From positions 27,528,001 to 27,592,000 of the forward strand of contig NC_083281.1 in the NCBI RefSeq assembly GCF_963506605.1: a stretch of 64,000 nucleotides of DNA, given 5' to 3'. This document shows, piece after piece, positions 1-50,700 of the stretch (its first letter is position 1; every line of letters begins with the position of its first letter). The stretch is from Zootoca vivipara. Lineage: Eukaryota. The notes under the pieces were generated by a model that did no database searches, was not told where the DNA came from, and worked only from the letters and a program-made list of their open reading frames with translations. Made by a program: the position numbers and the translations under genes.

Positions 1-616
1 TCTTTCGTCAACTCATCTTTAGTATACCACTCTACCAGCAAGTTATACATTTTGGACAACAATTTTACTCTGCCCCCTAGCAACTCTGTTTGAAATTTGG
101 ACCTTCTCTCCTCAAAACCAATTTTTTTATCTTGCACAAATACATCATTAATTTGATGATATTGCAACCAACTCGACAAATATACTTTCACCTCTTCATA
201 CGGTTTCAGTTTCCAACCTTGTTCCGATTGTCTTAGAAAATTTTCATATGTTGGTCTCTCACCTTCCATATTCACTTTTTTCACTATGATCACTTCCATT
301 GGTGAGATCCACCATGGCGTCTTAGTCTCTAACAAGGCTTTATTTCTTTCCCATACTTCAAATAACGATCTTCTTATAACATGGTTCGTAAATCCTTTAT
401 GGGTTTTTTTCTTATCATACCATAGATATGAATGCCAACCTGCTCTGTTGTCAAATCCCTCCAAGTCCAACAAGTCCGTATTTTCCAATGTTATCCATTC
501 TTTTATCCAACAGAGACATGACGCTTCAAAGTATAGTTTCAAGTCTGGCATGGAGAATCCGCCTCTTTCGGTCTTATCTACCAATATTTTATATTTTATT
601 CTTGGTTTCTTCCCCT
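1..616 (-). mobile_element. L1-clade LINE ORF2 fragment (post-RT region), continues off the left edge
   Basis: The minus strand reads GKKPRIKYKILVDKTERGGFSMPDLKLYFEASCLCWIKEW...KLLSKMYNLLVEWYTKDE, homologous to the L1 fragment at 17905-18411. Confidence 0.8.
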
Positions 617-843
617 AGCACAGGCAGTTTTCCTGGCCACCTCACTTGGAATGTCTCACAATTGGAATGTCCCACAATTGGCTCCTCCTCCTCAGAATGA
701 GACAGTAGAAGAAGGAGCAGCAGAGAAGCCTCTCCCTAGTCACCTGCCTCATCATTGGCCTGCCTCCCTACTCACCTGCCTCATCACTGGACAGATCACT
801 TGCCTGGTCTTCTGTTGGTAGGTGCCACAGACTGCCCATTAAA

Positions 844-2348: not shown

Positions 2349-2484
2349 ATGTCATCACCATTTTTCGTCTACAATGGGATCTTATTACCCACAGCCCTGT
2401 CCTCAGCAGAATCGCTCGCTTATCTGGAAAAAGAATTTCGCTTCTTGGATGATGATATACTGAGTGTCTCTTACCCCAAGTCAG
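2349..2484 (+). CDS. SULT2-like coding exon 1 ([10 protein letters not shown]...SYPKS)
   Basis: ATG at 2349; donor G|gtagga. Confidence 0.9.
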
Positions 2485-5400
2485 GTAGGAAAGACAGTGT
2501 GTAGTATGAGAGCTGTGGAACATTTTCAGAATAAACAGGGAAAGGTCATTGGAAGTGGCATTGGCAAATCATTTATTTTGTTTATTTATTAAATACCTGT
2601 CACAGTGGCCGGAGTGGACTACTTCAGAGTAACGACGCTACGCAGCTCTGCATTTTATTCTTTTATTGGTGCTGCGTATTTACAGTGCTCAAGTCATTGC
2701 TATTTACACGGAGCGATGTTGTCAGTCGGTTTCAGAACCTCCTAATGGCTTTTGGCGCGTCTTTCTCCAACACAAAAGCTTTGGCAGACCCATCCTCTTG
2801 CCCCTCCTCTTCCTGCGTAATTCTGGAGTTGGAGGGATGGGTCTTCCCCCCTTGCTTGCCCCTTCCTGTCCCACCTGGGACCCTGGCTCCTCTACCTTGC
2901 CTGAGCCTCGGACACGACTTCCTGCTTCCCCACTGGAATCGGAACTCTCCCTGCTTTCCCCTTTGCTCGGGGACGGGCTTGAACTCAGGAGGGGAGGGAC
3001 TTCGCGATATCCCCTGTCCCTCACATCCACCCCCCTCCCAAGCTCTCCTTCACCCCTCCCCAGGCCCCCCCCATGTGTCGGTGACGACTGGAAGCCTAAG
3101 AACTCAGTGCTCTCCGAGCCCGTTGGTGTGAATACCTCCCCCCAGTCCTGCGAGCCCCCCCCTTCCGCCTGGGCTGACGGGAATCCCAAAAAGTCCGTGG
3201 CGTCAGAGCTGGTGGGGGTAAAAACGTTCTGCCAATCTGCTCCTTCCTCTGACTGGGTGGATCTCGGTGACACCCATACCTCATCCTCTGGTTCCTCAAA
3301 CTCCGCTTCCCAGCGCCATGGTGAGCTGCTCTCCCGTGCCTCCTCCTCCTCCCCCTCCCTTTCCATGTGCCAGGGCTTGGGTCTGTGGGGAAAGAGGGCG
3401 TGAAATTCTTCCACCAAGAATTCCTCCTGTATCTGAGTGGCTGGGACCCATTCATTCTGGGACGGTGGAGCATCCTCCCATGCCATGAGGTACTCCAGTC
3501 CCCCCACCCCCCACCTTGAATCCAGGATGGCCGTGGCCTCATTGAGTTGCTCCCTGCCTTCCCTCTCCCCCCCTCCCTCGGGGGTTTGTTCGCTGTCTCG
3601 GAGCCTGCTGCTTTCCCTGTACGGCGACAGCAGCGATCTATGAAACACTGGATGCACCCTCATGTCCTCTGGCAGTGCCAGCCTGTATGCCACCGGGTTT
3701 ACCTGTTGCGTGACCGTGAAGGGGCCCAGCCTTTTGGGTGCCAGCTTTTTGCACCTCCCTCTGGTGGGAAGGCCCTCCGAGGACAACCACACCTTGTCCC
3801 CCACCCTGATGACCTCCCCTTGTCGCCTGTGGCGATCTGCCCCCTTTTTGTACGCTTCCTTGGCCCTCTCCAAGTGTTCTCTGAGCTGCTGGTGCACCGT
3901 CTCCAGTTCCTCTGCCCAATCCTCAGCCTGTGGGCCCTCCTCCTCCTCCTCCTCCCTCTCCCTCTCTGGGAAAGATCTGAGGTCGCGCCCGTAATTGGCC
4001 TTAAAGGGCGACACCCCTGTGGAGACGTGCACTGCATTGTTGTAGGCAAATTCTGCTAGTGGCAAGCGATCCACCCAGTCCGTTTGCCGCTGGCTGACGT
4101 AGCATCTCAGGTACTGCTGCAGAATGGCGTTGACCCTCTCCGCTTGTCCGTTGGTCTGCGGGTGTCTAGCCGTCGACAAGCTGACCTCCACCTGCAGGAG
4201 GTTCATGAGCCGCCGCCAGAACCTGGAAACAAATTGGCGGCCACGATCCGAAATAACCCTTAAAGGTAATCCATGCAGTCTGAAAATGTGATCAACAAAC
4301 AGTTTGGCTGTCTCTTCTGCCGAGACTGCCCTGGCACACGGTATAAAGTGACACATTTTGGACATAAGGTCCACCACCACCAACACTGCAGTCTTACCCC
4401 TGGACGAAGGCAGATCTGTGATGAAGTCCATGGACACCACTTCCCACGGCCTGTGTGGTGTGGCTAAGGGCTCCAGCAACCCTGGTGGCGCTGCTCTGAC
4501 CACCTTCGCCCGCTGGCAGGTGGTACAGCCCCTTACATAGTCTCGAACATCTTCCCGCACCCCTGGCCACCAGAAGTGTCTCATGACTAGGTGAGCGGTT
4601 TTGTCCCTTCCAAAATGCCCCGCTGTAGGGTTGTCGTGCATCTGCTTGAGGACCGTACGTCGAAGCTGGGTGGTGGGTAGGTACAGCGCACCCTTGTAGA
4701 AAAGCAGCCCTCTGCGTTCTGCAAAGTCTTTTGCCTGCTCCCTCCCCCCTCTCAGTTCTCTGAAGATGCGGTTGGCAAATTCATCCGCTGCCGTCAGTGC
4801 TGTGAGTTCTGCCTCGCTCACCACAGCTGCTCCGCAGGACCATGCCGACGGGGGGAAAATGTGCCTTGGGGCTGGTGGCGCCTCCTCCTCCATGTACTCT
4901 GGCTTGCGGGAGAGGGCATCCGCCCTGACATTCTGCTCCCCCGGGATGTAGTGGATGGAGAAGTTGAAGTTCGAGAAGAACTCTGCCCACCGTATCTGCC
5001 GCTGGTTGAGCACCCTGGCAGTTCTCCAGAACTCCAGGTTCTTGTGGTCTGTGCACACCTGGATGGGGTGCTTCGCGCCCACCAGGAAGTGTCGCCAGTG
5101 CTGGAACGCAGCGTAGATCGCAAGAAGTTCCCTATCAAACACTGTGTAGTTGCGTTCAGGCTGTGTCAGCTTCCTGGAGAAGAAGGCACAGGGTCTCCAC
5201 TCCCTGTTGGCGTCCAGTTGCAACAAAATTGCGCCCACAGCTTTTTCAGAAGCATCTGTCTCAATGCGTAGGGGCGCGTCCTGCACCACATGGAACAGGT
5301 TTTGGTCTGAGGCGAACACTCTCTTGAGGCTTTCGAACGCTGCTTGCGCCTCTGGTGTCCACTTGAACTTCTGCTTGCCTCTCAGGCAGTCCGTGATGGG

Positions 5401-8400
5401 AGCCGTAACGCGAGAGAAGTTCTTGATGAACTTCCTGTAGAAGTTAGCGAAGCCTAGTAGGCGTTGGGCATCTTTGCGCGTCCTGGGGCTGTGCCAGTCC
5501 AGGATGGCCTGCACCTTGTCCTTGTCCATCGCCAGCCCCTTGTCTGACAGCTTGTAGCCCAGGAAGTCCACCTCCTTGGTGTGAAACTTGCACTTCTCCA
5601 GCTTCACATACAGGTGGTTCTCCTTCAGGCGTTGCAACACCTCTCTGACATCTTTCACATGCTGCACTGGGTCATTCGAGTAGATAAGGATGTCATCTAG
5701 GAAGACCAAGCATTTCCTGAAGAGGAGGGACCCCAGGACGTGGTGCATGAAGGCCTGGAAGCATGCTGAGCCCCCTTGCAAACCGAAGGGCATCACCAGA
5801 TATTCAAAAGAGCCCAGAGGCGTGAACATCGTGGTTTTCCATTCATCTCCTTCCCGGATCCTGATCAAGTTGTACGCCCCCCTTAGGTCCAGCTTGGTGA
5901 AAATCTTGCCCCTGCGTGCCGCTGTCAGGAGATCATCCACTCTGGGCATGGGGAAAGCCACGGGCTCTGTCACCGAATTCAGCCGTCTAAAGTCCACCAC
6001 AAGACGGCGCTGTTGCGTGTCTTTCTTGTCCACCCAGAAGACCGGGCTGCCCCCTGCTGCCTTGCTTTCCCTTATGAACCCCCGCTTGAGGTTCTTGTCG
6101 ATGAAAGCGCGCAGATCCTCCAGCTCCTGGTCTGACATGGCGTACAGCTTGGCTGGGGGTATAGTTGCCCCTGGCACCAGGTTGATCTGGCAGTCAAAAG
6201 ACCTGTGTGGGGGTAGGTGGTCGGACTCCGCTTCGCTGAAGACCTCCTGCAGGTCCCAGTACGGCTTGGGTATCGCCTCACCCCCTTTGACGTGCATGGT
6301 GGCCACCGTGGCTATCGGAGGCCCCTCCCCTGGTTGGTGCTGCATGCAATGTTCCAGGCAAAAGTCCGATCCAAAAGTGATGCATCTCTGATGCCAACTT
6401 ATGGAGGGGTCGTGGCGCGCCAGCCAGCTCATGCCCAAGACGATGGGGGGGTCTGAGATGGTGGTGACGTTGAACGCCAGTGTCTCTGAGTGCCTTCCCA
6501 CCGTCATTCTCATGGGGGGGGTTTGATGTGTGATGGCCCCTCCCAGCAGCTCCCTGCCGTCAATGGTTGCTACGTGCAGAGGAAAATCCAACTGCAAAAG
6601 CTGGATTTGGTGCTCTTCTGCAAAGCTTCTCGAGAAGAAGTTGGCGGACGCCCCACTGTCAATTAAGGCGAGGACCGTCAGGGGATAGCCATTTGGGAGC
6701 GTTAGCGTCACTTCTAGAACCACTCCTGCTCTGGGAGGGGTGGGCTGGCTCTGCACCTCTCTGTGCGGGTGGGCGGGCTGGGGCTGTTGTCTGCTGACTG
6801 TGCCTGGCTGCTGCCCCTTGTCTCCTGCAGCCAGGCTTTCCCGTTTCCCTGCTGTGGTGCTGCGTCAGTGGGGGAGGGCACCACCGTTCCCGCCTTTCCT
6901 TGCCACTCCCTGCGATGTGGGCAGTCTCTGACGAGATGCTGGGGTGAGTTGCAGAGAAAGCAATTCCCGCCCCTTCCCTCCTTGCGTCTTGGCGCCGCTG
7001 GGGTTTGAAAAGCCCGCGCGCGCGCGCTATCAATCTGCATGGGCTCCTGGTCCTGGCTGGCTCCAGGCGTGGCCTGAAAGGGTTGTTGAGGGAGTGGCTT
7101 CTCCTGCGACCGTGGGAACCAAGCCCGCTTTGCGCGCGTCGCTTGCTTGTCGTTCCACCGGGATTCCTGCCTCACCCCCACCGCCAGAGCTGCTTTGCTC
7201 AGCTGATCCATAGTACTGGGCTTTGGACCTCTCGAGAGTTCATCCTTCACCTCCTCGCTCAAACCCAAGTAAAACGCAGCTTGCATGGGAGGCGAATCCA
7301 AAACCCACCCCAGTCTGTGCACCAGCATGGTGAATTTCGCCCAATATGCGCGAACTGTCATATTTCCTTGGCGTAAATTATGCAGTTCCTCCTTAGTCTG
7401 GTCCAAATGACTATCGGACGAATACATCGTCCTCAAACCTTCTAGAAATTGTTGGACATTTTTCATGCAAGGATTCTTGGTTGCGATTAATGGTCTTAGC
7501 CACTCCCTGGCTGCTCCGGTGAGATGTTCCACAATAAACGCTACTCTGTGCTCATCATCGGGGAACTCATTCTGGTGCAGCTCAAGAGCATACACGATCT
7601 CAGTCTCAAAGCCCTGAAACTCCTTCGGGTCTCCATTGAACTTGCTTACAAGGGTCCCTGCTCTCCTTCCTGGCAGCACTTGGACTTGGGGAGCCCCTCC
7701 CGCCTTGTTTTTCTCTGCATCCAGCTTGTTTTGGAGGTCTACCGCCACCGCCCTTAAATGCTGCTCTTTTTCCTGGAGCTCTCTCACCTGTTCCGCAAGT
7801 TGTAGCCGGTCGTCCTGGACCTTCTTAGTCTCCTCTTTAGCTGCCTTCAATTCTCCCTGCGCCTGCAGCGACAGCTGTTGCAGTTCTAGCTGGGCTTGCT
7901 CAGCGATCTGCCGCCACTTCTCCGCCTCGGACACGCTCATCCCGGCAACTCCGAAGTAGCCCAAAAATGATTAGGAGGTTGCTGTCACAGTGGCCGGAGT
8001 GGACTACTTCAGAGTAACGACGCTACGCAGCTCTGCATTTTATTCTTTTATTGGTGCTGCGTATTTACAGTGCTCAAGTCATTGCTATTTACACGGAGCG
8101 ATGTTGTCAGTCGGTTTCAGAACCTCCTAATGGCTTTTGGCGCGTCTTTCTCCAACACAAAAGCTTTGGCAGACCCATCCTCTTGCCCCTCCTCTTCCTG
8201 CGTAATTCTGGAGTTGGAGGGATGGGTCTTCCCCCCTTGCTTGCCCCTTCCTGTCCCACCTGGGACCCTGGCTCCTCTACCTTGCCTGAGCCTCGGACAC
8301 GACTTCCTGCTTCCCCACTGGAATCGGAACTCTCCCTGCTTTCCCCTTTGCTCGGGGACGGGCTTGAACTCAGGAGGGGAGGGACTTCGCGATATCCCCT

Positions 8401-9102
8401 GTCCCTCACAATACCCATCCTGCTCTTCCTCCCATAGGAGCCGAGGGCAGCAAACACTAAAATGTTAAAGCAATAATATTGTGATAATAAGATATTTTTT
8501 TTAAAAAAATTAATGCACATGAAAACACCAGACAATTTAAAAACATTTAAAACAGTCACATACCCTCACCACTAATAATTTCATATTGCCAGGAGGTTTG
8601 CTTTGGTGGTCAAAGTAGTTGTAAGGTGTGCATTGCAGAACCAAAAGGGCTGTGGGAGAAAAGGTAGCCCTATGATTGCTATATTCCCTCCTAGGTGGCC
8701 GTTGGATGGTAGAGATCTTGTCAGCGATCCAGCAAGAATGGGACCCCTCGTGGGTTTTCATTGAGAAAATAACCTGGATCGAGACTTTTGATGGCATGAA
8801 GACTGCCTTGAAATCTCCTTCACCCAGAATCTTGGCTTCTCACCTTCCAATAAACCTTCTCCCTAAGACCTTTATTGAGTCCAAGGCCAAGGTAAGAGAG
8901 AAACAATTCACACACAAAAGCCTGATCATGTCTGTCTGCAGTAAAGATACTGGGAATTCCATACTGTCAATATTTGGCACAGCCCATTTCCAGGAAGGTG
9001 CCACAAGGGTTGTTTGTTGTAATAGCAGTAATAGTGCAAGCTTAGAAAGCACTATAGGAAAGATGCTTTAACCATCATCTTAATTCCAGAATGGTATAAA
9101 TA

Positions 9103-9153
<51 letters not shown>

Positions 9154-12100
9154 TTATTATTTATACCCCGCCCATCTGGCTGGGTTTCCCCAGCCACTCT
9201 GGGTGGCTTCCAACAGAAAAATGAAATAAAATAATCTATTAAACATTAAAAAGCCTCCCTAAACATCTGGTAGCTGTTTTTCTCTTTGACATCTGATGGG
9301 AGGGCATTCCACAGGGTGGGCGCCACCACCGAGAAGGTCCTCTGCCTGGTTCCCTGCAACTTGGCTTTTCGCAACGAGGGAACCGCCAGAAGGCCCTCGG
9401 TACTGGACCTCAGTGTCCAGGCAGAATGATGGGGGTGGAGACGCTCCTTCAGCTATACTGGACCGAGGCCATTTAGGGCTTTAAAGGTCAGCAGCAACAC
9501 TTTGAACTGTGCTCGGAAACGTACTGGGAGCCATTGTAGATCTTTCAAGACCGGTGTTATGTGGTCTCGGTGGCTGCTCCCAGTCACCAGTCTAGCTGCC
9601 GCATTCTGGATTAGTTGTAGTTTCCGGGTCACCTTCAAAGGTAGCCCCACGTAGAGCACATTGCAGTAGTCCAAGCGGGAGATAACTAGAGCATGCACCA
9701 CTCTGGCGAGACAGTCTGCAGGCAGGTAGGGTCTCAGCCTGCATACCAGATGGAGCTGCTAAACAGCTGCCCTGGACACAGAATTGACCTGCGCCTCCAT
9801 GGACAGCTGTGAGTTACCCCATTCAGGACCAGGGAGTCCTCCACACCTGCCCGCCTCCTGTCCCCCACAAACAGTACTTCTGTCTTGTCAGGATTCAACC
9901 TCAATCTCTTCAGTCCATGACCTCAGCGGAGGATTGCTGTGGCCCCAGTTTGCTAGGCTGCCCCCAAAGCTCTCTCTGAAGCTGGAAGTCGCAATGAAAC
10001 ATCTCACTTTCAAAATCTGGCAAAATGTCAGAGTTCAAACTGTGTTTTTGGCTTTCACTTCTGAGGGCCAGACTAGCTGGCGTGATGATTTGGCAAGTAG
10101 GAAGTCATGCAGGTGGGTTCTGAAGCCATATCTGTATAGTGAGGCAGGGACTGACTTTTTCAATCCATGCCACTGGCAATGTTCATGTATCTTTCCTCAA
10201 TGGTGGGAATCTTCACGGGGAAATGAATGAAAGAAAATGATTTTTTTTTAAACCCCACACCAGTCCCATTTCCTCTGTCCCATAAGCAGGCACCAGACAC
10301 CTGCTCTTGTATAAATCTCAAACAGACAATATATCACAGGTTTCCACTATTAACACCTACTTAAGGTTCAGGATGGGGGTGGCGCTGTGGTCTTGGCACT
10401 TAACCAGGGTTGTGTTTTCTTTGGAAATGAGACACAACGGAGGCTGTGCTCCATTTCCATATTTCTTAAAAACACTCATCTCTGCTGTGCCTCGATTTCC
10501 CAATTGAAGCAATTCTGCTAGAGAACCTGGAACCCTCTGGGATCCTGCTACTGCTCAGCAGACTGGGGTGGCATGCAACCTTTGTAACAATACGGCTATT
10601 TGATTTGATTTATTTCCACGCTGCTTTTCATTCAAATGAATCTCAAAGCGGCTTACAAACAATAAATAACAACCACATAATAAAACTACAATAAATAGCT
10701 AATTTCCTGACACCCCACTTGGCCGCCACACTCTACCTAATGTTAGAATGTGTCATGCTGCTCCTCCCTTAAGATGTGCCCGCTGCTCTCTTTCAGGTTA
10801 TTTACACCCTACGTAACCCCAAGGATGTGCTGGTCTTGTTCTACCACGCCTATAAAAAATGGAAGGACCCTGGAAGTCTGGATAAGTTCTTGGAGGAGTT
10901 CTTAAATGGGAATGGTATGGAAAGAGGCAAATCAGCTCACCCAGGGCCGTCTTTAGCATATGTGCCGCCGGGGTGCAAAGATCCACCCAGTGCCCCCAAA
11001 TTTAGTTAATTTTGCATGCACAGCGCCATTGAGAATGACAAGCGCTGCCGTTGTGAATGACAAGCGCCACTGCTGGCACGCGCTTCTTTAGTAAATGAGC
11101 GCACAAAGTCAAAAGTCCTTTAGTGAAACAGTAGGTATACATTTTGGCAATACCTAGGTATATATGTATTTTGTTTGTCTAGCTTGATCAAAATTATTTA
11201 TTATTTCATAACAGGTAGATAGTTCTGAAGCTTAGGCGGCTTCAACGATGGGTGCGGCACCTGGTGCCCCCCAGAATTTGGCACCTGGGTGCCCTGCACC
11301 CCTTGCATCCTGGGCTCATCTCCCTCTGTTGCAGCCCAAAGGTCTGCTCCCCGACACCACGGAGGCTCTCTTCTTAACCATTGCAAGAGCCCTATCGTAG
11401 AACTGTAATTCCAGCAGGGATAAATCAGAAGGAAGGTGGGAGGTGCCGTGATAGTTAAACTCAGGCATCCCCAAACTGTGGCCCTCCAGATGTTTTGGCC
11501 TACAACTCCCATGATCCCTAGCTAAGAGGACCAGTGGTCAGGGATGGTGGGAATTGTAGTCCAAAACATCTGGAGGGCCGAAGTTTGGGGATGCCTGGTT
11601 AAACTCCTTTTAAAATGAATAACGTCCTTAAGTAGTGAATGGCCCAAATGTGTGGGGAGGGGATATAGTGGGGTCTCAAATCCAGTGTTTTGTGGCAATA
11701 TTATAAGGAATGTGTGACACTGGAATTGTTACTAGACTACAAATGCCATCATCCCTGACTATACTTGCTGGGTGTCAGGGACTGGGCAGAGGAGGAATGG
11801 TGGAGACCCGCCTCCGCATCTTGACCCTTCCAGGGAGGAGGAAGAGGAAGACAGTATAGTTTTACAACAGGGGTTTGAGGGAGGTAGCAGCTCAGAGGCA
11901 GATGAGGGGAGAAGCTCAACAATCATGGGATAGTCGGGACAACACCCAGCTGACACGTTGCCATTAGAAAGCATCCCAGACCCTCCATCTCATGGAACCT
12001 GGCAAGCCTTGAAAGTAGGAGAGCACAGAGCATGAAGACAGAGGGCAGGTAGCAGCACCCATAGAAGTGACGAATGAGGAAGTGGGAGAGATGGGGCGGG

Positions 12101-14398
12101 GTGGAGATTCATTCAGGACAATGCCATTTTCCAAGAGGCTGGGTTCCATAGCCTCTCTCTGTAAAGATTGAAATGAAAAAGGACAGTAAGAAATTTTCCC
12201 TTGCCTGTATACTTTCCTGGGCAACCAACCGACAACACCCTGACACTGGGGCTGATGGGAGGTGTGGTCCAAGAGAAGTGGTAAAGTTGTTGTCTCACCC
12301 CAAACTCTGTGTCATTATATAGTCTAGTAACTAACTGGCAGTACCTGGATAGGATTCAGGAGCTTCCTGTTGCTATTCTGCTTTTGTTTGAGAAAAGCAT
12401 TAGACGTTCCTTGCTACCTTCTTGGTTAGTCTGTTCTCCCCGAGTCTTCCTTGACACACCTCCTTACCGTTGATGCTTACTGGTGCCTCTGTTTTCCTCT
12501 TCCAGTGTCCCATGGCTCCTGGTTTGACCACGTGAAAGGCTGGCTGCAGATGAAGAAAAGGGAAAACTTCTTGTTCATCACGGTTGAAGAGTTGAAGCAG
12601 GTGTGGTCCAACCTTAGCGCTTGCCCTGGAGTTGTCCACACTTCAGCTTGTCCCGTAGCTAGGAAGCACGGGTCCAGCCGGGTCCAGCTTGTAACTCATA
12701 CTTTCTAGGCATGAGTCCAAGCCGTTTTGCGTTTGCCCCATTGCTTCCGCCTGGAAAACCTGCTCTTTAGGGCCAAGTCTGAGCAAACGTCCATTTGGAG
12801 AAAAACCTGATTGATGTTTGTTCCAATTCAGCTATAAACAGCGGGTTTTCCTGGGGGGAAAGTGGCAGAGAAGCAGAAGTGTAGATGAGCCCATTGTTAT
12901 ATTCACACATCCATAGTTACCATCATCTTATTTATTGCTTATCTATTTCATAAAATCTATATAGCACTTGATTTAAAAAACAACAACCTCAAAGAAGTTT
13001 ACAAAAGGTTACAACCATTTTCATTTTTGTAAATTCTGGTATTGTTTGCTAGATACATTTGAATATGTGCAGTATTCCTTTCTGCCCCTCTACATGATTA
13101 AACCTAATATGAAAGTCACTTAATGGAAAAGAGCTTTATATCATGTGCAGAGTGCCCTTACTTTGTCCCACATCAGACCAGGAATGCCCTCAGATGAACT
13201 ATTTTGTATTTATTTCAATATCTCCTTTTACTTGTATTTTCTTCAAATTCTTACTTTTAAAAAAAGACTTTATTTTAGGTGTCTGTGCACAGGGAAACAA
13301 ATACTTGCATGCATGCCCACAACATGTGGAACAACACACGAATTTTTTATTGATTGCTATGCTATTTTGTGCAAATCTGATAGTTCAAAAAACTTGTGTT
13401 CCCACCCCCGATTTTTTTAAAGGTGTGCACACAGATAAACAAATAGCCTACAATCGACCTCAGATTTCCAGAACTTGTGAAGGACAAGGATATACTAATA
13501 CTAATGGGGAGACACACAGCATGAAAACATTCCATCAAGCATCACCCACTAGTATAGACAGGAAGCAACAGGACGGATTTTGGAGGCATAAAATCAAAAC
13601 TGCTCATATGTGGATGAAGACAAACAAATTTGCACATGGACTCAGTGACCCATGCATATGTTAGTGCCCTAGTGTGGACACAACCAAGTTCTGCTGCTGT
13701 CTCAGATGCTCCTTCAGTGCTGAGCAGGCCAAGCGGCAGTCTGAGACAAAAAGAGAGGCAGTCTTTTGAGAACAGGATTCTACTCTGGCTTCTGCACTAT
13801 GGTGGCTGAGAGGTCAATACACTCATGGAATCACTGTTGTTAAATGCACCCTACAAACTAGCAGCAATGCCCTCTGTGTGCCTCTTAATCAGCTTCACAG
13901 TAATTTGCTTTTCCCTTCTGCAGGACCTTCGAGGGAGTGTGGAGAGGATCTGCCAGTTCCTCGGCAAGGAGCTGAACAGCCAGCAAATAGACTCTGTGGT
14001 GGAAAGCCCCTGCTTCAAGAAAGTGAAGCATGAGACCATGCCCATCTCATCTCGGAAGCGAAGTAGTTTAATGCCCAGTAAACATGCGCTGACAGGTAAC
14101 AATAGAGCTTATGGTGGAGTCCATAGATAAAGGCCATTAGGCAAGGGGGGCGGGCGGTTCGGGTGGAGAGTCTTTCCCTGTGAAGTGCCATTGACCAATG
14201 GATAAAGTTAATCAGGAATTGAAGCCGGTGCTGAAATAATTCTGGCTGAACATCTTTGTGGTTATGAGTCCCTCTTGTGGTCTTTCAGGGCTCCCCGGGG
14301 ATTGGAAGCACCATATCACAGTGGCACAGAACGAACGCTTTGACAGTTGTTATCCACCTCACATTCAGGGTGTGGGTGTGCGTTTCCCTTGGGACTGA
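2349..14398 (+). CDS. SULT2-family (SULT2B1-like) cytosolic sulfotransferase-like gene, 6 coding exons, 275 aa, divergent PAPS site
   Basis: Exons 2349-2484, 8695-8891, 10797-10914, 12506-12600, 13924-14095, 14289-14398 (828 nt, all GT-AG, phases compatible, no stops). Motifs [62 protein letters not shown] at 14729-14734. Confidence 0.93.
2598..3025 (-). repeat. 3' LTR of the Gypsy element
   Basis: Matches 7983-8410; preceded on the element strand by the [17 protein letters not shown]. Confidence 0.97.
2722..6849 (-). CDS. pol: Gypsy Pol (protease, RT, RNase H, integrase, chromodomain, long acidic/basic tail), entered by -1 frameshift
   Basis: LIDSGA protease; FLDD RT; ETDAS RNase H; HHCC, DDE and GPF integrase; chromodomain at about 3375-3540. 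The frame is -1 relative to gag and is open from the GGGAAAC slip site at 6849-6843. Confidence 0.95.
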   Translation of the reverse strand, partial: GKRESLAAGDKGQQPGTVSRQQPQPAHPHREVQSQPTPPRAGVVLEVTLTLPNGYPLTVLALIDSGASANFFSRSFAEEHQIQLLQLDFPLHVATIDGRELLGGAITHQTPPMRMTVGRHSETLAFNVTTISDPPIVLGMSWLARHDPSISWHQRCITFGSDFCLEHCMQHQPGEGPPIATVATMHVKGGEAIPKPYWDLQEVFSEAESDHLPPHRSFDCQINLVPGATIPPAKLYAMSDQELEDLRAFIDKNLKRGFIRESKAAGGSPVFWVDKKDTQQRRLVVDFRRLNSVTEPVAFPMPRVDDLLTAARRGKIFTKLDLRGAYNLIRIREGDEWKTTMFTPLGSFEYLVMPFGLQGGSACFQAFMHHVLGSLLFRKCLVFLDDILIYSNDPVQHVKDVREVLQRLKENHLYVKLEKCKFHTKEVDFLGYKLSDKGLAMDKDKVQAILDWHSPRTRKDAQRLLGFANFYRKFIKNFSRVTAPITDCLRGKQKFKWTPEAQAAFESLKRVFASDQNLFHVVQDAPLRIETDASEKAVGAILLQLDANREWRPCAFFSRKLTQPERNYTVFDRELLAIYAAFQHWRHFLVGAKHPIQVCTDHKNLEFWRTARVLNQRQIRWAEFFSNFNFSIHYIPGEQNVRADALSRKPEYMEEEAPPAPRHIFPPSAWSCGAAVVSEAELTALTAADEFANRIFRELRGGREQAKDFAERRGLLFYKGALYLPTTQLRRTVLKQMHDNPTAGHFGRDKTAHLVMRHFWWPGVREDVRDYVRGCTTCQRAKVVRAAPPGLLEPLATPHRPWEVVSMDFITDLPSSRGKTAVLVVVDLMSKMCHFIPCARAVSAEETAKLFVDHIFRLHGLPLRVISDRGRQFVSRFWRRLMNLLQVEVSLSTARHPQTNGQAERVNAILQQYLRCYVSQRQTDWVDRLPLAEFAYNNAVHVSTGVSPFKANYGRDLRSFPEREREEEEEEGPQAEDWAEELETVHQQLREHLERAKEAYKKGADRHRRQGEVIRVGDKVWLSSEGLPTRGRCKKLAPKRLGPFTVTQQVNPVAYRLALPEDMRVHPVFHRSLLSPYRESSRLRDSEQTPEGGGEREGREQLNEATAILDSRWGVGGLEYLMAWEDAPPSQNEWVPATQIQEEFLVEEFHALFPHRPKPWHMEREGEEEEARESSSPWRWEAEFEEPEDEVWVSPRSTQSEEGADWQNVFTPTSSDATDFLGFPSAQAEGGGSQDWGEVFTPTGSESTEFLGFQSSPTHGGGLGRGEGELGRGVDVRDRGYREVPPLLSSSPSPSKGESRESSDSSGEAGSRVRGSGKVEEPGSQVGQEGASKGGRPIPPTPELRRKRRGKRMGLPKLLCWRKTRQKPLGGSETD
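6714..7940 (-). CDS. gag: Gypsy Gag (coiled coil, capsid, CCHC zinc knuckle)
   Basis: First ATG at 7940 (MSVSEAEKW); [14 protein letters not shown] knuckle; PEG10/RTL-like capsid region. Confidence 0.93.
   Translation of the reverse strand: MSVSEAEKWRQIAEQAQLELQQLSLQAQGELKAAKEETKKVQDDRLQLAEQVRELQEKEQHLRAVAVDLQNKLDAEKNKAGGAPQVQVLPGRRAGTLVSKFNGDPKEFQGFETEIVYALELHQNEFPDDEHRVAFIVEHLTGAAREWLRPLIATKNPCMKNVQQFLEGLRTMYSSDSHLDQTKEELHNLRQGNMTVRAYWAKFTMLVHRLGWVLDSPPMQAAFYLGLSEEVKDELSRGPKPSTMDQLSKAALAVGVRQESRWNDKQATRAKRAWFPRSQEKPLPQQPFQATPGASQDQEPMQIDSARARAFQTPAAPRRKEGRGGNCFLCNSPQHLVRDCPHRREWQGKAGTVVPSPTDAAPQQGNGKAWLQETRGSSQAQSADNSPSPPTRTERCRASPPLPEQEWF
6780..6849 (-). other. -1 ribosomal frameshift signal (G GGA AAC plus stem/pseudoknot)
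   Basis: Slippery heptamer in the gag frame, 6-nt spacer, 10-bp stem GCCTGGCTGC/GCAGCCAGGC; loop GGGGC can pair with downstream GCCCC. Confidence 0.85.
7970..7980 (-). promoter_or_regulatory. Self-priming primer-binding site (non-tRNA)
   Basis: AACCTCCTAAT, 2 nt downstream of the 5' LTR, is the exact complement of ATTAGGAGGTT inside the LTR (8131-8121); no TGG tRNA-type PBS is present. Confidence 0.85.
7983..8410 (-). repeat. 5' LTR of the Gypsy element
   Basis: 428 bp, TG...CA ends; AATAAA on the element strand near 8047-8052. Confidence 0.97.
8695..8891 (+). CDS. SULT2-like coding exon 2 (GGRWMVEIL...ASHLP...SKAK)
   Basis: ctag acceptor, gtaaga donor. Confidence 0.92.
9107..9908 (-). mobile_element. 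L2-clade LINE 3' portion with (AAT)n tail
   Basis: [13 protein letters not shown]...[10 protein letters not shown]...[21 protein letters not shown]. Confidence 0.88.
10797..10914 (+). CDS. SULT2-like coding exon 3 ([10 protein letters not shown]...FLNGN)
   Basis: tttcag acceptor, gtatgg donor. Confidence 0.92.
11462..11597. mobile_element. 136-bp hairpin hAT-type MITE
   Basis: TIR CAGGCATCCCCAAACT; 8-bp TSD GTTAAACT. Confidence 0.9.
11773..12245 (+). mobile_element. Solo LTR (473 bp) nested in a MITE
   Basis: TGTCAGGG...CCCTGACA termini, 5-bp TSD CTGGG; the flanks rejoin into a ggactacaa...ctggggctgatgggag MITE. Confidence 0.85.
12506..12600 (+). CDS. SULT2-like coding exon 4 (VSHGSWFDH...EELKQ)
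   Basis: ttccag acceptor, gtgtgg donor; 95 nt. Confidence 0.92.
13924..14095 (+). CDS. SULT2-like coding exon 5 ([14 protein letters not shown]...HALT)
   Basis: ctgcag acceptor, gtaaca donor. Confidence 0.88.
14289..14398 (+). CDS. SULT2-like coding exon 6 ([16 protein letters not shown]...FPWD*)
   Basis: tttcag acceptor; TGA at 14396-14398. Confidence 0.9.
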
Positions 14399-14999
14399 AG
14401 AAGGGTTGCTTTTTCGCATCCCCACACTCTTTTATCTCTCATATGATGCATGTCCCTCCTACCAAACCACCAGGCTCTATCGCTCTTCTTCAGATGTGAT
14501 CAGAAGAGGCTGGTCAGTGAATGGTATCGTTGTATTGTCTTTTGTATTTTCAAATATGGTATGCAAGAGGTAGGCAACCTGTGGCCATCCAGATGTGGTG
14601 GAACTGCACGCCCATCATCCCCGACCATTGACAATGGTGGCTGGGGCTGATGGGAGCTGGAATCTATTAGCATCTGGAGGGCTACAGGTTCCCCATCCCT
14701 GCTGTATGTTGTTTGTTTTTTATTCTGTAATAAAAATTGTATTGTATCTTATAGTATTCATAATTGTATTGATGCACAGCTAAATGTATTCAATTACCCA
14801 TACCAACACAACAGGTGGTAATGCTGTCAGGGTGATGTTATGGATTCCAAAGTTATTTCCCAAGGTGGCAGTCAGTCAGTTAGTCAATCAGTCAGTCAGT
14901 CTGTCTGTCTCTCTCTCCCCCACCCCACCCATTACAGAGCCTGTTCTGGTTGCTTTTTCCTTGTGATTGAAGCAATATCCCCTCATGCCAAAGAAACCC

Positions 15000-44700: not shown

Positions 44701-47700
44701 TGAAAAGTGAGAGTATGCATGGAGGACTATATTATATTTCATTATTTTTTTAATACGACATTTTATTTTATTTTGCTTAATTAATTTGATTCACATACTG
44801 CCCTTCATCATAAGATCTCAGGGTGGTTCACAGAATAAAATAGAGGAAAGAAATAAGTAAATAAGTAAAACAAAACAGAAAAAAACATACTCCACCCCGC
44901 CCCTTCTCACAGACACATGTAAAAGGCTGGAGAATATTCATCAGCCAAAGGCCTGGTTGGTTATAGGGCTGCTATACATCCGGATTTTCCTGGACATTAC
45001 CAGGATTTCAAAGGCGGAACTGACGTCCGGGGGGAATTTCCAAAAGGTGGCGCTTTGTTCTGGATCTTAGGAAAAAGCTTTTGGGTTTTTACTTTTTGAA
45101 ATATGGCAACCCTAATGAAGAGGAACTATATTAGAAACATTGAGTAATTTTCTGCTCTGTGTCTTTGGAGGGTGCTTGGAATGGGACAGCTAGCTAGCTA
45201 GCTTGATATTTAACAGAGAAGCTAGGGCATTATTCCAAGNNNNNNNNNNNNNNNNNNNNNNNNNNNNNNNNNNNNNNNNNNNNNNNNNNNNNNNNNNNNN
45301 NNNNNNNNNNNNNNNNNNNNNNNNNNNNNNNNNNNNNNNNNNNNNNNNNNNNNNNNNNNNNNNNNNNNNNNNNNNNNCTTTACCTCGCCCCCCCCCCAGG
45401 TGAACAATAATGGAGTGGTGTCATTTGGTAAGCCGGTCAGCCAGTTCACTCCTGATCCTTTCCCCTTGACGGATGGACGGGCCTTTGTCGCTCCCTTTTG
45501 GGCTGATGTCGATAACCGCATCACCGGCGAGGTCTACTACAGGCAGAGTCAAGAAAAGCATCTCCTGCAGAGAGTCACAGGTGACATCAACACTTACTTC
45601 CCGAGTGAAAAGTTCACGGCTACCTGGGCCTTCATAGCCACTTGGGACCAAGTGGCTTTCTATGGATCCCTGTCCTCCAAGGTACGATTCTTTGATCATT
45701 TCTTCATGACGGCATTTCACTAACACACCAAAAACAGCTGTATACATGACAACACTGGCTGCCTGAGTACAGTTCACTGGCATGCAAATAGCAGCTGTGG
45801 GGAAGACTGAGCAGCTTCTGGACCAAGGGGATTGGGGAGGAGAAATTTAATTTTTTCTCTCCCTGCCAAATTCTTCTTGTAACTGCTATTTGCATTTCAA
45901 GGGAATGTGCTAGTGGTACCATGTGAGACTTTGCTGGAAATGCAAATAACATGTTCAGTATTGTGATATTTGCCAGGACCACAGCAGGGAGGGAGGGAGA
46001 ATTACTCATGCCCCTGCTTGGTCTTTCTTAGGGCTGCCAGACGCAGACAAGGACAGAGCTCCTACGCCTTTAATAGTTGAGTCCAAGGGAATTTCAGCAG
46101 ATGCACCTGCTGAAATCCGTTTTTTGGCATAATTATCAAAGGTGCAGGAGCCCTGTCCCATTTTTGCACCTGGTTATCCTAGTCTCCCCTGCAGCTGCTA
46201 CTTACAGAACCAAAAAAGGTGTGTTGATTGCATTTCCACAATTAACATCCCTTCTAGTTTGGCCCTAAACTAGGCATCCCCAAACTGCGGCCCTCCAGAT
46301 GTTTTGGCCTACAACTCCCATGATCCCTAGCTAACAGGACCAGTGGTTGGGGAAGATGGGAATTGTAGTCCAAAACATCTGGAGGGCCGAAGCTTGGGGA
46401 TGCCTGCCCTAAACCATTCACTTCCATGGATCCAATATGGAGCAAATATAATGGCTGCCCAGGCTTTCCTACAGCTGCTATTGATGCAACAAAATGGATG
46501 AACATTAATTGCATTCGCACAGTTAGTGTCACCATCTGCTGTGAACTTCAGGTGGCCAATGAATAAATCTCAAACTTTGGTTCAAACAGCTGCAAACCCA
46601 GGGGTTACCAAAGGGGCTCCTGCCAGATGTCAGTGGACTACAACTTCCATAATCCCTAGTTTGTTGTGGGGGAGGAAGGGAAAGGAGAATGTTAGCCGCT
46701 TTGAGACTCCTTTGCGTAGTGATAAAGCGGGATATCAAATCCAAACTCTTCTTCTTCTTCTGACCATTAGCCATGCAACTTCTGGAAGACTCCACATTGG
46801 CTATTCTTGCTCAAACCTTTCCTGATTTGAACGCTACAGTAATACTCACTCCATAGCACCCAGCTCTAGCCTATAATAAGGCTTTATTTTAAAAAAGAAA
46901 AAAGCAGAAAAAATATTACAAGAGGAGGGGTGGGAAGGAAGGGGTGGTTTTATTGAAAACGCCGTCTTCATCTGGTGAAAATAAAGGCTGTTTTCTCCCA
47001 TTGCAACCTGGGCCCTGCTTTACTTGTGTTTAACTGTAACCTGGCATGTATTTAATGTGCCATAAAAGTCACAATAAATCCTGATTAAATGCCTGGTTAA
47101 GAATTTTAAACCCTTGGGACACCGTGACCAGATTACAGAGCAGAGTAATAGTTCTACCAGCTGACAAAATCAAGGGAACTGTAAGTAGACGGCTTATTGC
47201 TTTCTGCTCCAGTTAACCGCAGTCTAAAAGCAAACAATATTCACTGGAATAAAGGAGGAAGATGCCACTCCCACTCGTGTACACATTCAAAAATTGTCCA
47301 TATGAATTCAATGGTACACCCTTAAGGGCCAAACAAATGCAATGAATGCTTTTGAATTTTAAATTCATGTTTGTTTTTCTCATATACACGCGACAAACCA
47401 TTCAATCATAGGGTGCTTCCAGAATGTGCTGTTTATGGTTTGGGATTCAATCACATACCAGCAAAACTCTGGTTGTGCAATTGTAGTTGATGGGGAGGTC
47501 CTGTGCAAGAAATCCACTTCCCCAGAATATTGGACCTTTTGTGCTAAGGAAAGTGACCAGACAATGCAGTGGGTAGTGTGGGTGTGAGATAACTGTTGCT
47601 TTGATGCAACATCCTCCTACTGTTGTTGTTGTTTAGTCGTTTAGTCGTGTCCGACTCTTCGTGACCCCATGGACCATAGCACGCCAGGCACTCCTGTCTT

Positions 47701-50700
47701 GCACTGCCTCCCGCAGTTTGGTCAAACTCATGTTCGTAGCTTCGAGAACACTGTCCAACCATCTTGTCCTCTGTCGTCCCCTTCTCCTTGTGCCCTCCAT
47801 CTTTCCCAGCATCAAGGTCTTTTCCAAGGATTCTTCTCTTCTCATGAGGTGGCCAAAGTATTGGAGCCTCAGCTTCACGATCTGTCCTTCCAGGGAGCAC
47901 TCAGGGCTGATTTCCTTAAGAATGGATAGGTTTGATCTTCTAGCAGTCCATGGGACTCTCAAGAGTCTCCTCCAGCACCATAATTCAAAAGCATCAATTC
48001 TTCGGCGATCAGCCTTCTTTATGGTCCAGCTCTCACTTCCATATATCACTACTGGGAAAACCATAGCTTTAACTATACGGACCTTTGTCGGCAAGGTGAT
48101 GTCTCTGCTTTTTAAGATGCTGTCTAGGTTTGTCATTGCTTTTCTCCCAAGAAGCAGGCGTCTTTTAATTTCGTGACTGCTGTCACCATCTGCAGTGATC
48201 AAGGAGCCCAAGAAAGTAAAATCTCTCACTGCCTCCATTTCTTCCCCTTCTATTTGCCAGGAGGTGATGGGACCAGTGGCCATGATCTTGGTTTTTTTGA
48301 TGTTGAGCTTCAGACCATATTTTGCGCTCTCCTCTTTCACCCTCATTAAAATGTTCTTTAATTCCTCCTCACTTTCTGCCATCAAGGTTGTGTCATCTGC
48401 ATATCTGAGGTTGTTGATATTTCTTCCGGCAATCTTAATTCCGGCTTGGGATTCATCTAGTCCAGCCTTTCGCATGATGAATTCTGCATATAAGTTAAAT
48501 AAGCAGGGAGACAATATACAACCTTGTCGTACTCCTTTCCCAATTTTGAACCAATCAGTTGTTCCATATCCAGTTCTAACTGTAGCTTCTTGTCCCACAT
48601 AGAGATTTCTCAGGAGACAGATGAGGTGATCAGGCACTCCCATTTCTTTAAGAACTTGCCATAGTTTGCTGTGGTCGACACAGTCAAAGGCTTTTGCATA
48701 GTCAATGAAGCAGAAGTAGACGTTTTTCTGGAACTCTCTAGCTTTCTCCATAATCCAGCGCATGTTTGCTATTTGGTCTCTGGTTCCTCTGCCCTTTCGA
48801 AATCCAGCTTGCACTTCTGGGAGTTCTCGATCCACATACTGCCTAAGCCTGCCTTGTAGAATTTTAAGCATAACCTTGCTAGCGTGTGAAATGAGCGCAA
48901 TTGTGCGGTAGTTGGAGCATTCTTTGGCACTGCCCTTCTTTGGAATTGGGATGTAGACTGATCTTCTCCAATCCTCTGGCCATTGCTGAGTTTTCCAAAC
49001 TTGCTGGCATATTGGGTGTAGCACCTTAACAGCATCATCTTTTAAGATTTTAAATAGTTCAGCTGGAATATCATCACTTCCACTGGCCTTGTTATTAGCA
49101 GTGCTTTCTAAGGCCCATTTGACTTCACTCTCCAAGATGTCTGGCTCAAGGTCAGCAACCACACTACCTGGGGTGTACGAGACCTCCATATCTTTCTGGT
49201 ATAATTCCTCTGTGTATTCTTGCCACCTCTTCTTGATGTCTTCTGCTTCTGTTAGGTCCTTACCACTTTTGTCCTTGATTATGGTAATCTTTGTACGAAA
49301 TGCTCCTTTCATATCTCCAATTTTCTTGAACAGATCTCTGGTTTTCCCCATTCTATTGTTTTCCTCTATTTCTTTGCATTGCTCATTTAAGAAGACCCTC
49401 TTGTCTCTCCTTGCTGTTTTTTGGAAATCTGCATTCAGTTTCCTGTATCTTTCCCTATCTCCCTTGCATTTTGCTTGCCTCCTCTCCTCCGCTATTTGTA
49501 AGGCCTCGTTGGATAGCCATTTTGCTTTCTTGCATTTCCTTTTCCTTGGGATGGTTTTCGTTGCTGCCTCCTGTATAATGTTACGAGCCTCCATCCATAG
49601 TTCTTCAGGCACTCTGTCCACCAAATCTAAATCCTTAAACCTGTTCCTCACTTCCACTGTGTATTCATAAGGGATTTGATTTAGATTGTATCTTACTGGC
49701 CCAGTGGTTTTTCCTACTTTCTTCAGTTTAAGCTGGAATTTTGCTATAAGAAGCTGATGATCTGAGTTACAGTCAGCTCCAGGTCTTGTTTTTGCTGACT
49801 GTATAGAGCTTCTCCATCTTTGGCTGCAGAGAATATAATCAATCTGATTTCGATGCTGCCCATTTGGTGATATCCATGTGTAGAGTCTTCTCTTGTGTTG
49901 TTGGAAGAGAGTGTTTGTGATTACCAGCTTGTTCTCTTGACAGAACTCTATTAGCCTTTGCCCTGCTTCATTTTGAACTCCAAGGCCAAACTTGCCAGTT
50001 GTTCCTTTTATCTCTTGATTCCCTACTTTAGCATTCCAATCCCCTGTAATGAGAAGAACATCCTTCTTTGGTGTCATTTCTAGAAGGTGTTGTAGGTCTT
50101 CATAGAATTGGTCAATTTCACTTTCTTCAGCACCGGTAGTTGGTGCATAAACTTGGATTACTGTGATGTTAAAAGGTCTGCCTTGGATTCGTATCGAGAT
50201 CATTCTGTCATTTTTGAGATTGCATCCCATTACAGCTTTTGCCACTCTTTTGTTGACTATGAGGGCCACTCCATTTCTACTACGGGATTCTTGCCCACAG
50301 TAGTAGATATGATAGTCACCCGAACTGAATTCGCCCATTCCCTTCCATTTTAGTTCACTGATGCCCAGGATGTCGATATTTATTCTTGTCATCTCATTTT
50401 TGACCACATCCAGCTTACCTCCACTCATGGTTCTTACATTCCAGGTTCCTATGCAATATTTTTCTTTACAGCATCGGACTTTCCTTTCGCTTCCAGGCAT
50501 ATCCGCAACTGAGCGTCCTTTCGGCTTTGGCCCAGCCGCTTCATCAGCTCTGAATCTACTTGTACTTGTCCTCCGCTCTTCCTCAGTAGCATGTTGGACG
50601 CCTTCCGACCTGAGGGGCTCATCTTCCAGCGTCATAACTTTTATATGCCTGTTGTCTTTGTCCATGGAGTTTTCTTGGCAGGGATACTGGAGTGGCTTGC

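Follow-up and report, generated by a model that had tools for sequence, protein, structure and literature searches.

Gene structure and genomic context

A 64,000-nt stretch of the Zootoca vivipara genome (contig NC_083281.1, positions 27,528,001 to 27,592,000; "the window") contains a gene that reads as an intact cytosolic sulfotransferase of the SULT2 family with a dismantled site for the cofactor PAPS. This locus raises the question of whether the gene is misread, is decaying, or encodes a protein that is maintained for something other than sulfation.

The gene is real. Six coding exons on the + strand (828 nt, 275 aa) are joined by GT-AG introns without internal stops, and the protein is identical to XP_034974619.1 (RefSeq "SULT2B1-like"), which confirms the open frame and canonical splice sites reported by the first-pass annotation. 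The motif stretches as first read are [23 protein letters not shown], then [19 protein letters not shown]. The features are:

618..817, + strand: likely 5' exon ahead of the coding exons, not coding here; followed by a GT donor (818), start not defined
2349..2484, + strand: coding exon 1; ATG, PSB loop PKS, Lys44 at 2478-2480; acceptor AG at 2338-2339
2598..8410, - strand: chromodomain Ty3/Gypsy LTR retrotransposon in intron 1; identical 428-bp LTRs at 2598-3025 and 7983-8410, 5-bp target duplication
8695..8891, + strand: coding exon 2, 197 nt (209 in paralogs); 4-aa deletion in loop 1; Gly47 replaces Thr (8697-8699), Trp61 replaces an invariant Gly, His95 is retained (8841-8843)
10797..10914, + strand: coding exon 3, 118 nt (127 in paralogs); 3-aa deletion in loop 2; Arg117 is retained, Leu125 (10836-10838) stands in place of the 3'-phosphate Ser
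12506..12600, + strand: coding exon 4, 95 nt; His153 in place of Tyr/Phe, Val177 (12583-12585) in place of the adenine-contact Tyr
13924..14095, + strand: coding exon 5, 172 nt (181 in paralogs); loop 3 remodelled; Leu238-Thr239 (14089-14094) replace Arg-Lys of RKG
14289..14398, + strand: coding exon 6; GDWK, dimer motif Lys246-Glu255 (14306-14335), stop
14729..14734, + strand: candidate poly(A) signal, the first AATAAA past the stop (sequence match only)

The gene sits at the end of a tandem SULT2 array, whose other six intact members are canonical and share its coding exon number and phases. The exon shortfalls noted earlier were correct for exon 2 (12 nt) and exon 3 (9 nt), and exon 5 is short by 9 nt rather than 6, a loss confined to Zootoca. 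In the newer RefSeq annotation the gene is broken into models of 217 aa and 126 aa. Mis-splicing and assembly error were rejected as explanations of the unusual residues: orthologs support these residues, and DNA runs X2 and X5 are identical over exons 3-6. In two frames the upstream exon resembles the extra N-terminal sequence of Podarcis models, and it is interrupted by stops in the window; the 62-aa extension of those models was rejected as coding sequence in Zootoca, its frame not being open within the window. The 5.8-kb LTR retrotransposon, absent from the first-pass annotation, begins 113 bp into intron 1 and is a fresh insertion.

Family membership and predicted structure

Both domain content and descent place the protein in the SULT2 family. 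It carries a Sulfotransfer_1 domain (PF00685, 213 bits against a cut-off of 22), its AF2 model retains the SULT fold (pLDDT 86; TM 0.86 to SULT2B1b, 1Q1Z), and it falls among SULT2 sequences in the tree, with 47% identity to SULT2B1b, in line with its exon structure. The tree makes it one of many squamate SULT2B1-like paralogs and not the SULT2B1 ortholog. In lacertids, loops 1 and 2 are partly deleted and loop 3 is rewritten; residues 217-235 (loop 3) have pLDDT below 50, whereas an active paralog has no residue below 50. The pocket residues Trp77 and His99 are retained, with a derived His153 at pocket position 160.

Replacement of PAPS-binding residues

With contacts taken from PMC10997614 and PMC8134075, five of the 12 conserved PAPS contacts are replaced in the Zootoca copy (T47G, S125L, Y177V, R238L and K239T). 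Across lacertids the proportion is 5/12 against 13/80 other conserved sites (p=0.054), and in the Florida worm lizard Rhineura floridana 6/12 contacts are changed (p=0.015). The motifs PKSGGRW, VLVL, VEE and LTG were read properly from the start, and the residues they replace are near-invariant in 136 other homologs. In SULT2A-type numbers, the canonical residue is present in 122 at Thr47 (11 gaps, 3 Ser), in 133 at Ser129 (2 gaps, 1 Leu), in 135 at Tyr184 and in 134 at Arg247; the lone Leu at Ser129 and the lone non-Tyr at Tyr184 both belong to the Rhineura ortholog. Four database models (P0005, P0049, P0050 and P0051) fuse exons of the Zootoca gene with paralog exons and were taken as annotation chimeras; the count of 136 excludes the first three and includes P0051.

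In the 5'-PSB loop (K-S-G-T-x-W), Thr has become Gly, and Lys, Ser, Gly and Trp remain. The loss of Thr had been recognized correctly; the Arg of PKSGGRW occupies a variable position that is His in orthologs. The 3'-PB motif keeps its Arg, and its Ser is Leu in 6/6 species of the clade and Ser in 101/101 others. LTG stands in place of the RKG before GxWK, and Val in place of the adenine-contact Tyr. Two other features had been described as retained, and they are: the catalytic His95 is present in every clade member and the KxxxTVxxxE dimer motif is intact in all six species. His99, Arg121 and Trp49 are kept in all members, and Lys44 and Gly249 in lacertids.

When human SULT2B1b variants are mapped onto the clade by sequence alignment, two of the five replaced sites correspond to variants with 3.5% and 0.5% activity; the values given in PMC11392796 are 3.5% for T73M, 0.5% for R274Q and not detectable for G276V. 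The copy lacking these PAPS residues is, on sequence grounds, likely unable to sulfate.

Orthologs and age of the loss

Lacerta agilis and three Podarcis species have orthologs whose frames are open and whose PAPS site is dismantled in the same way. The Rhineura protein groups with this lacertid clade with support of 100/97, and of 99/94 when PAPS columns and loop 3 are left out. It has the S-to-L change in common with lacertids, has lost other PAPS contacts, and shares 11 rare residues with them (next best sequence, 3). At the sites of T-to-G and Y-to-V, changes that each take two steps, it has Ser and Phe, the one-step intermediates. The remaining decay differs by lineage, with Lys-to-Gln in Rhineura and Thr-to-Gly, Tyr-to-Val and Arg-to-Leu in lacertids. 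Because the Rhineura protein joins the clade and has S-to-L and other lost contacts, the loss of the PAPS site is dated, from these sequences, to at least 64 My.

Separate decay in Rhineura and lacertids is a rival reading of this pattern. The two branches (0.46 and 0.67) are long and can attract each other, and by score the Rhineura protein matches canonical enzymes better than the lacertid proteins. Placing it with its canonical paralogs is modestly rejected (p-AU 0.042 and 0.022), and the 11 rare residues also argue against separate decay.

No orthologs beyond lacertids and Rhineura were found among the 120 best matches of two homology searches, and each of 143 further representatives had at most one of the four clade signatures; coverage was thin for teiids, other amphisbaenians and unannotated genomes, so that these searches do not prove absence. 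Literature searches found no description of this clade, and one for precedents of steroid binding yielded nothing of use.

Selection on the clade and on the Zootoca copy

Stops in orthologs and a dN/dS near 1 would mark a decaying pseudogene. Neither was seen: after loss of the key residues the frames are open in six species, and omega on the clade branch is 0.575, below 1 (p=0.011), with dN/dS within lacertids being an indirect estimate. This value is above the background of 0.39, though not significantly (p=0.11). Under neutrality, the chance that frames stay open across three genera is ~1e-5 or less. Lineage-specific changes number 6-10 in Podarcis and 10-11 in Lacerta, compared with 9-15 in active neighbours and a rough neutral expectation of 27. 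Because the same lesions and open frames occur in five lacertid species, the Rhineura ortholog is degenerate, and omega is below 1, the sequences support a selected pseudoenzyme rather than a pseudogene. A pseudogene decaying throughout, like separate decay in the two lineages, is in our estimation very improbable.

The earlier claim that selection maintains the protein and not sulfation holds for the clade, from its lesions, open frames and omega; the Zootoca copy itself shows signs of relaxation. It has 18-20 private changes, against 6-11 in orthologs and a Zootoca count of 8-15 for active neighbours, and evolves ~2x as fast as its orthologs. Its count lies between the canonical (p 0.004-0.015) and neutral (p 0.04-0.09) expectations, and it has lost the clade-specific Phe260 and three loop 3 residues. 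The new LTR element, the split RefSeq models and the near-absence of RNA reads point the same way. In three RNA runs without known tissue, exon 6 depth was zero in 3/3, and reads over exons 2 and 5 were nearly all paralog-like, only 1-2 reads lacking such letters (X8). Still, frame and splice sites are intact, which has a rough chance of 0.03-2% if evolution was neutral over the whole terminal branch, and run X6, compared over 2,267 bp, shows 3 indels and 14 substitutions, all of them outside the 377 coding bp (p 0.045-0.078). The Zootoca copy may be losing constraint within a functional clade, which we regard as possible but doubtful and which is compatible with the other readings.

Elsewhere, several RefSeq isoforms in Podarcis and Rhineura hint at possible RNA support. 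X1 is a single unspliced 224-nt piece that is uninformative on expression, and the UniProt id of the ortholog is not on a 667-protein list from Lacerta femoral glands.

Possible functions

We tentatively favour the reading that this intact SULT2 paralog, with PAPS residues replaced in six lizard species and likely non-sulfating, works in the cytosol by holding a fat-soluble ligand, probably of sterol or steroid type, where the acceptor substrate used to bind. A tandem duplicate would have lost Ser129 and started eroding Thr47 and Tyr184 before the lacertid-amphisbaenian split. The PAPS site, once freed, would then have decayed along separate routes in each lineage, while selection held the fold and new residues (Trp61, His153 and Phe260) were presumably fixed. 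The protein, probably dimeric, could bind its ligand without cofactor, as described in PMC1847840 for SULT2A1, which binds androsterone without PAP, and SULT4A1, which binds catecholamines and not PAP. Trp77 and His99 are invariant family-wide, and their retention may serve the fold instead of the ligand pocket. Judging from the model, the loop 1 and 2 deletions and the rewriting of loop 3 may have wrecked the steroid pocket in lacertids.

The dimer motif suggests another role, in which a PAPS-less subunit would pair with active neighbours through KTVE and alter cofactor release, half-site behaviour or stability. The motif is intact in 6/6 species, and a predicted complex with an active neighbour scored 0.70 (best of three controls, 0.00); this mark is reached by 51/78 solved and 2/108 mismatched microbial pairs, and by 39/65 and 2/126 eukaryotic ones. 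Runs share at least 81% of contacts, the partner has pLDDT of at least 83, and the interface is the motif itself (residues 245-255). Simulations (PMC4492763) suggest cofactor-dependent talk between SULT subunits. Yet SULT dimers are already solved, so that the model indicates likeness and does not prove binding or partner. Motif retention is also weaker evidence than was implied earlier, as its four positions would stay unchanged with a probability of ~0.31 under the background conservation of the clade. In addition, the Zootoca gene is nearly silent in the RNA runs in which paralog-like reads are present. We consider this role unlikely.

Less probable again, and quite unlikely in our view, is that the protein is still an enzyme, with weak PAPS-dependent sulfation or other chemistry through the retained His99, Lys44 and Arg121, alongside Trp49. 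SULT4A1, long considered inactive, was later reported to sulfate 1-naphthol (PMC7694633). Lineage-specific decay would be unexpected of a retuned cofactor site, and the single changes at two sites that nearly kill human SULT2B1b (PMC11392796) speak against residual sulfation.

A broader version of the favoured binder, about which we have considerable doubt, would give vertebrates, in this clade, a second pseudo-sulfotransferase lineage of independent origin, restricted to lacertids and worm lizards and no younger than 64 My. The protein would be a cofactor-free carrier or sensor of sterols or their sulfate esters that reuses the anion nest Lys44/Arg121/His99 and also docks active neighbours via the dimer motif.

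Comparison with known sulfotransferases

Human SULT2B1a/b and SULT2A1, which give the top PDB match in sequence and in fold, resemble the clade in fold, catalytic His and dimer motif; they differ from it in that the clade has replaced 5/12 PAPS contacts, has shorter loops 1 and 2 and has a rewritten loop 3. To our knowledge, SULT4A1 is the sole well-known candidate pseudoenzyme among vertebrate cytosolic SULTs, and its function is disputed. By analogy, it is the nearest precedent, although not an ortholog: the best PDB match of the Podarcis ortholog is SULT2B1 (E 1e-79), against E 3e-28 to SULT4A1. SULT4A1 shares the SULT fold, the His and the dimer motif and, according to PMC1847840 and PMC11275347, binds small ligands without PAP and does not bind PAP. 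It originated independently of SULT2. Its TYPKSGT motif is intact, and its failure comes from a short loop 3 together with a Trp-to-Leu change; in the lizard clade that Trp is present, and the residues exchanged are Thr, Ser, Tyr, Arg and Lys. SULT4A1 occurs throughout vertebrates and evolves slowly, while the clade evolves fast and turned up in lacertids and Rhineura alone. Mouse SULT2A8 is likewise an array-derived SULT2 paralog with an altered catalytic set; according to PMC8134075 it has lost His99, kept the whole PAP pocket and remained active, the reverse of the clade.

The clade is a separate natural experiment, in which the cofactor site was taken apart one residue at a time and selection continued to act on fold, His and dimer motif, with six active siblings adjoining as controls. 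It makes testable both the role of a SULT without PAPS and trans regulation between SULT dimers. Databases call these proteins ordinary sulfotransferases, and lizard skin or steroid transcriptomics citing "SULT2B1" could consequently count a non-enzyme.

Gene structure and array context

The coding exons of the pseudo-SULT gene, all with GT-AG boundaries, are located as follows:

2349-2484, forward strand, coding exon 1
8695-8891, forward strand, coding exon 2
10797-10914, forward strand, coding exon 3
12506-12600, forward strand, coding exon 4
13924-14095, forward strand, coding exon 5
14289-14398, forward strand, coding exon 6

These six exons encode 275 aa without a stop, in line with the intact, canonically spliced gene of the first-pass annotation. 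The protein matches XP_034974619.1 (Zootoca vivipara "sulfotransferase 2B1-like") at every residue, and the current annotation divides the gene into 217-aa and 126-aa models. It is the final unit of a tandem SULT array (G000:C6, 27.415-27.542 Mb). Of the eight units upstream of it, six are intact genes, another carries stops and the remaining one is a fragment of two exons. PKSGTHW, the 3'-PB Ser, YEE and RKG are present in all six intact genes, whose exons measure 209, 127, 95, 181 and 110 nt (last exon longer in one gene). Given paralog exons of 209, 127 and 181 nt, exons 2, 3 and 5 of pseudo-SULT are shorter by 12, 9 and 9 nt; the shortfalls first proposed hold for exons 2 and 3, and that of exon 5 is 9 rather than 6 nt. 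The paralog with stops also has a broken exon 4 and is followed by the fragment, itself with a stop (G000:C6:27447000-27458500); both are ordinary birth-and-death within the array. Elsewhere, at G000:C3:51477000-51618000 (L046-L060), some ten cytosolic SULT genes from a different subfamily form another tandem array, with canonical motifs and stray last-exon copies.

A dismantled PAPS site

By descent, pseudo-SULT belongs to the SULT2 family. PAP contacts listed for SULT2B1a are Lys55, Ser56, Gly57, Thr58, Arg132, Ser140, Tyr195, Ser229, Arg259, Lys260 and Gly261, plus one Trp and one Phe (PMC10997614), and the mouse SULT2A8 list agrees (PMC8134075). PDB alignment matched Thr58, Ser140, Tyr195, Arg259 and Lys260 to Gly47, Leu125, Val177, Leu238 and Thr239, confirming the replacements (Thr, Ser, Tyr, RK of RKG) first read from the sequence. 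These positions are near-fixed in other homologs (Ser 133/136, Tyr 135/136, Arg 134/136), and pseudo-SULT changes 5/12 conserved PAPS contacts versus 13/80 remaining conserved sites (p=0.054). Residual activities reported for human SULT2B1b are 3.5% for T73M and 0.5% for R274Q, with G276V undetectable (PMC11392796). Lys44, Trp49, His95, Arg117 and the dimer motif are still present, so the PSB Lys, catalytic His and motif were rightly described as kept. Pseudo-SULT departs from three defining PAPS motifs and is therefore not classed as an active sulfotransferase; residual or new catalysis, for which reported SULT4A1 activity speaks (PMC7694633), is improbable. Five skink SULT2 paralogs (P0033, P0034, P0082, P0091, P0165) have REG for RKG and an altered GDWK, a separate event at the cofactor site.

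Orthologs and age of the clade

Four other lacertids, Podarcis raffonei, P. muralis, P. lilfordi and Lacerta agilis, carry full-length orthologs (86-88% identity). In these, Leu, Val and LTG are unchanged and Gly or Ser stands in for Thr; the substitutions thus recur in other lizards. Ser-to-Leu extends to Rhineura floridana XP_061452978, which also shows Lys-to-Gln, Thr-to-Ser and Tyr-to-Phe and lacks RKG (6/12 PAPS contacts changed, p=0.015). This protein clusters with the lacertid ones with support 100/97 in a 58-protein tree, and 99/94 when a 23-protein tree was built with the PAPS columns and loop 3 left out. They share 11 rare residues (runner-up of 101 sequences, 3), and joining XP_061452978 to its own canonical paralogs was modestly rejected (p-AU 0.022, 0.042). 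However, branches are long on both sides, and its top-scoring matches are canonical enzymes. Thr-to-Gly and Tyr-to-Val each take two base changes, and Rhineura carries intermediates, consistent with gradual, stepwise loss from a single ancestor. Fossils put the lacertid-Rhineura split at no less than 64.2 My, and the posterior estimate is 68.5-83.3 My (PMC2719621); the clade is old. In P0042 (P. raffonei isoform X2), the rewritten loop 3 is 13 residues shorter, apparently via an earlier exon 5 donor.

The proteins form a real clade of probable pseudoenzymes, apparently previously undescribed: no description was found in the open-access literature searched, and PMC10963123 goes no further than tying a lizard "SULT2B1" to skin colour. 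SULT4A1 is nearest in predicted working (PMC11275347) but differs in its separate origin and substitutions.

Selection and expression

A codon branch model was fitted to seven Zootoca genes (271 codons, purpose-written script). On the pseudo-SULT branch, which also spans time preceding PAPS-site loss, omega came to 0.575; this is lower than 1 (p=0.011) but does not differ from the 0.39 of the background (p=0.11). Lineage-specific amino-acid changes number 6-10 in Podarcis and 10-11 in Lacerta, similar to the 9-15 of active neighbours, but 18-20 in Zootoca. A rough neutral expectation, scaled from neighbours, is 27; under neutrality, open frames in three genera would have a chance of ~1e-5 or less. 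Over 2,267 bp, sequencing run X6 departs from the window by 14 substitutions and 3 indels; the 377 coding bp show no difference (p 0.045-0.078). The Zootoca copy lacks the clade residue Phe260 and has loop 3 shortened by three residues. Together, omega, change counts, open frames and the X6 comparison indicate at sequence level that the clade is constrained and the Zootoca copy intermediate.

Expression was surveyed over exons 2-6 in three RNA runs of unspecified tissue, with ~6% of each run sampled. Exon 6 depth was zero in all three, and no exon-exon joint was among the 15 listed of 77. Reads with other letters made up 73/73 and 22/23 at exon 2 and 34/36 and 35/35 at exon 5, and were closer to two adjacent paralogs. 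A 667-protein Lacerta femoral-gland table includes two other sulfotransferases but not the id of the P. muralis ortholog (PMC9000839). Alternative RefSeq isoforms suggest RNA support for the Podarcis and Rhineura orthologs.

Predicted structure and proposed role

The AF2 model has the SULT fold (pLDDT 86; TM 0.86 to SULT2B1b), with residues 217-235 below 50 and loop 1 at 64. An active neighbour modelled with the same 106 sequences reached 94.5 without a segment below 50, a gap that may partly come from the canonical-dominated alignment. The predicted complex of pseudo-SULT with an active neighbour scored 0.70 (best of three controls 0.00; 51/78 solved and 2/108 mismatched pairs reach the mark), with at least 81% of contacts agreeing between runs, partner pLDDT of at least 83 and the interface at the dimer motif (defined in PMC5550701), whose retention has a background chance of 0.31. 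Since SULT dimers are already solved, the prediction shows likeness to them only. That pseudo-SULT acts as a heterodimer regulator, for which PMC4492763 can be cited, is unlikely, if less so than catalysis.

That the PAPS site decayed differently in two lineages speaks for released constraint rather than a new cofactor. The protein keeps its fold and, in the acceptor pocket, the Trp and His; it also keeps residues newly shared in the clade, among them His153, at pocket position 160 (numbering of PMC8134075). SULT2A1 is reported to bind androsterone without PAP, and SULT4A1 to bind catecholamines but not PAP (PMC1847840). From the kept fold and pocket residues and these precedents, we tentatively prefer cofactor-free binding of a lipophilic ligand over regulation or catalysis, at somewhat under even chances. 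Which ligand it would be is made uncertain by the loop deletions in lacertids.

Other features of the window

A full-length chromodomain Ty3/Gypsy LTR retrotransposon occupies 2598-8410 (reverse strand), with identical 428-bp LTRs and unbroken gag and pol frames. Of 2,128 candidate copies, 40 were scored, and every one is 100% identical across 1,201 bp, marking a very recent burst in the Zootoca genome. A small NIDO-domain gene lies at ~27400-33000 (forward strand); its ortholog P0045 has 324 aa and an acidic tail. Model P0043 of P. lilfordi, probably an annotation fusion, joins pseudo-SULT to this gene and confirms matching gene order in Podarcis. An alpha-tectorin/IgGFc-binding-like gene with NIDO, VWD, C8 and TIL exons follows at ~43600-64000 (forward strand), and LINE-like reading frames were judged by eye at 1-615 (reverse), 47636-50743 (reverse) and 60122-61613 (forward).
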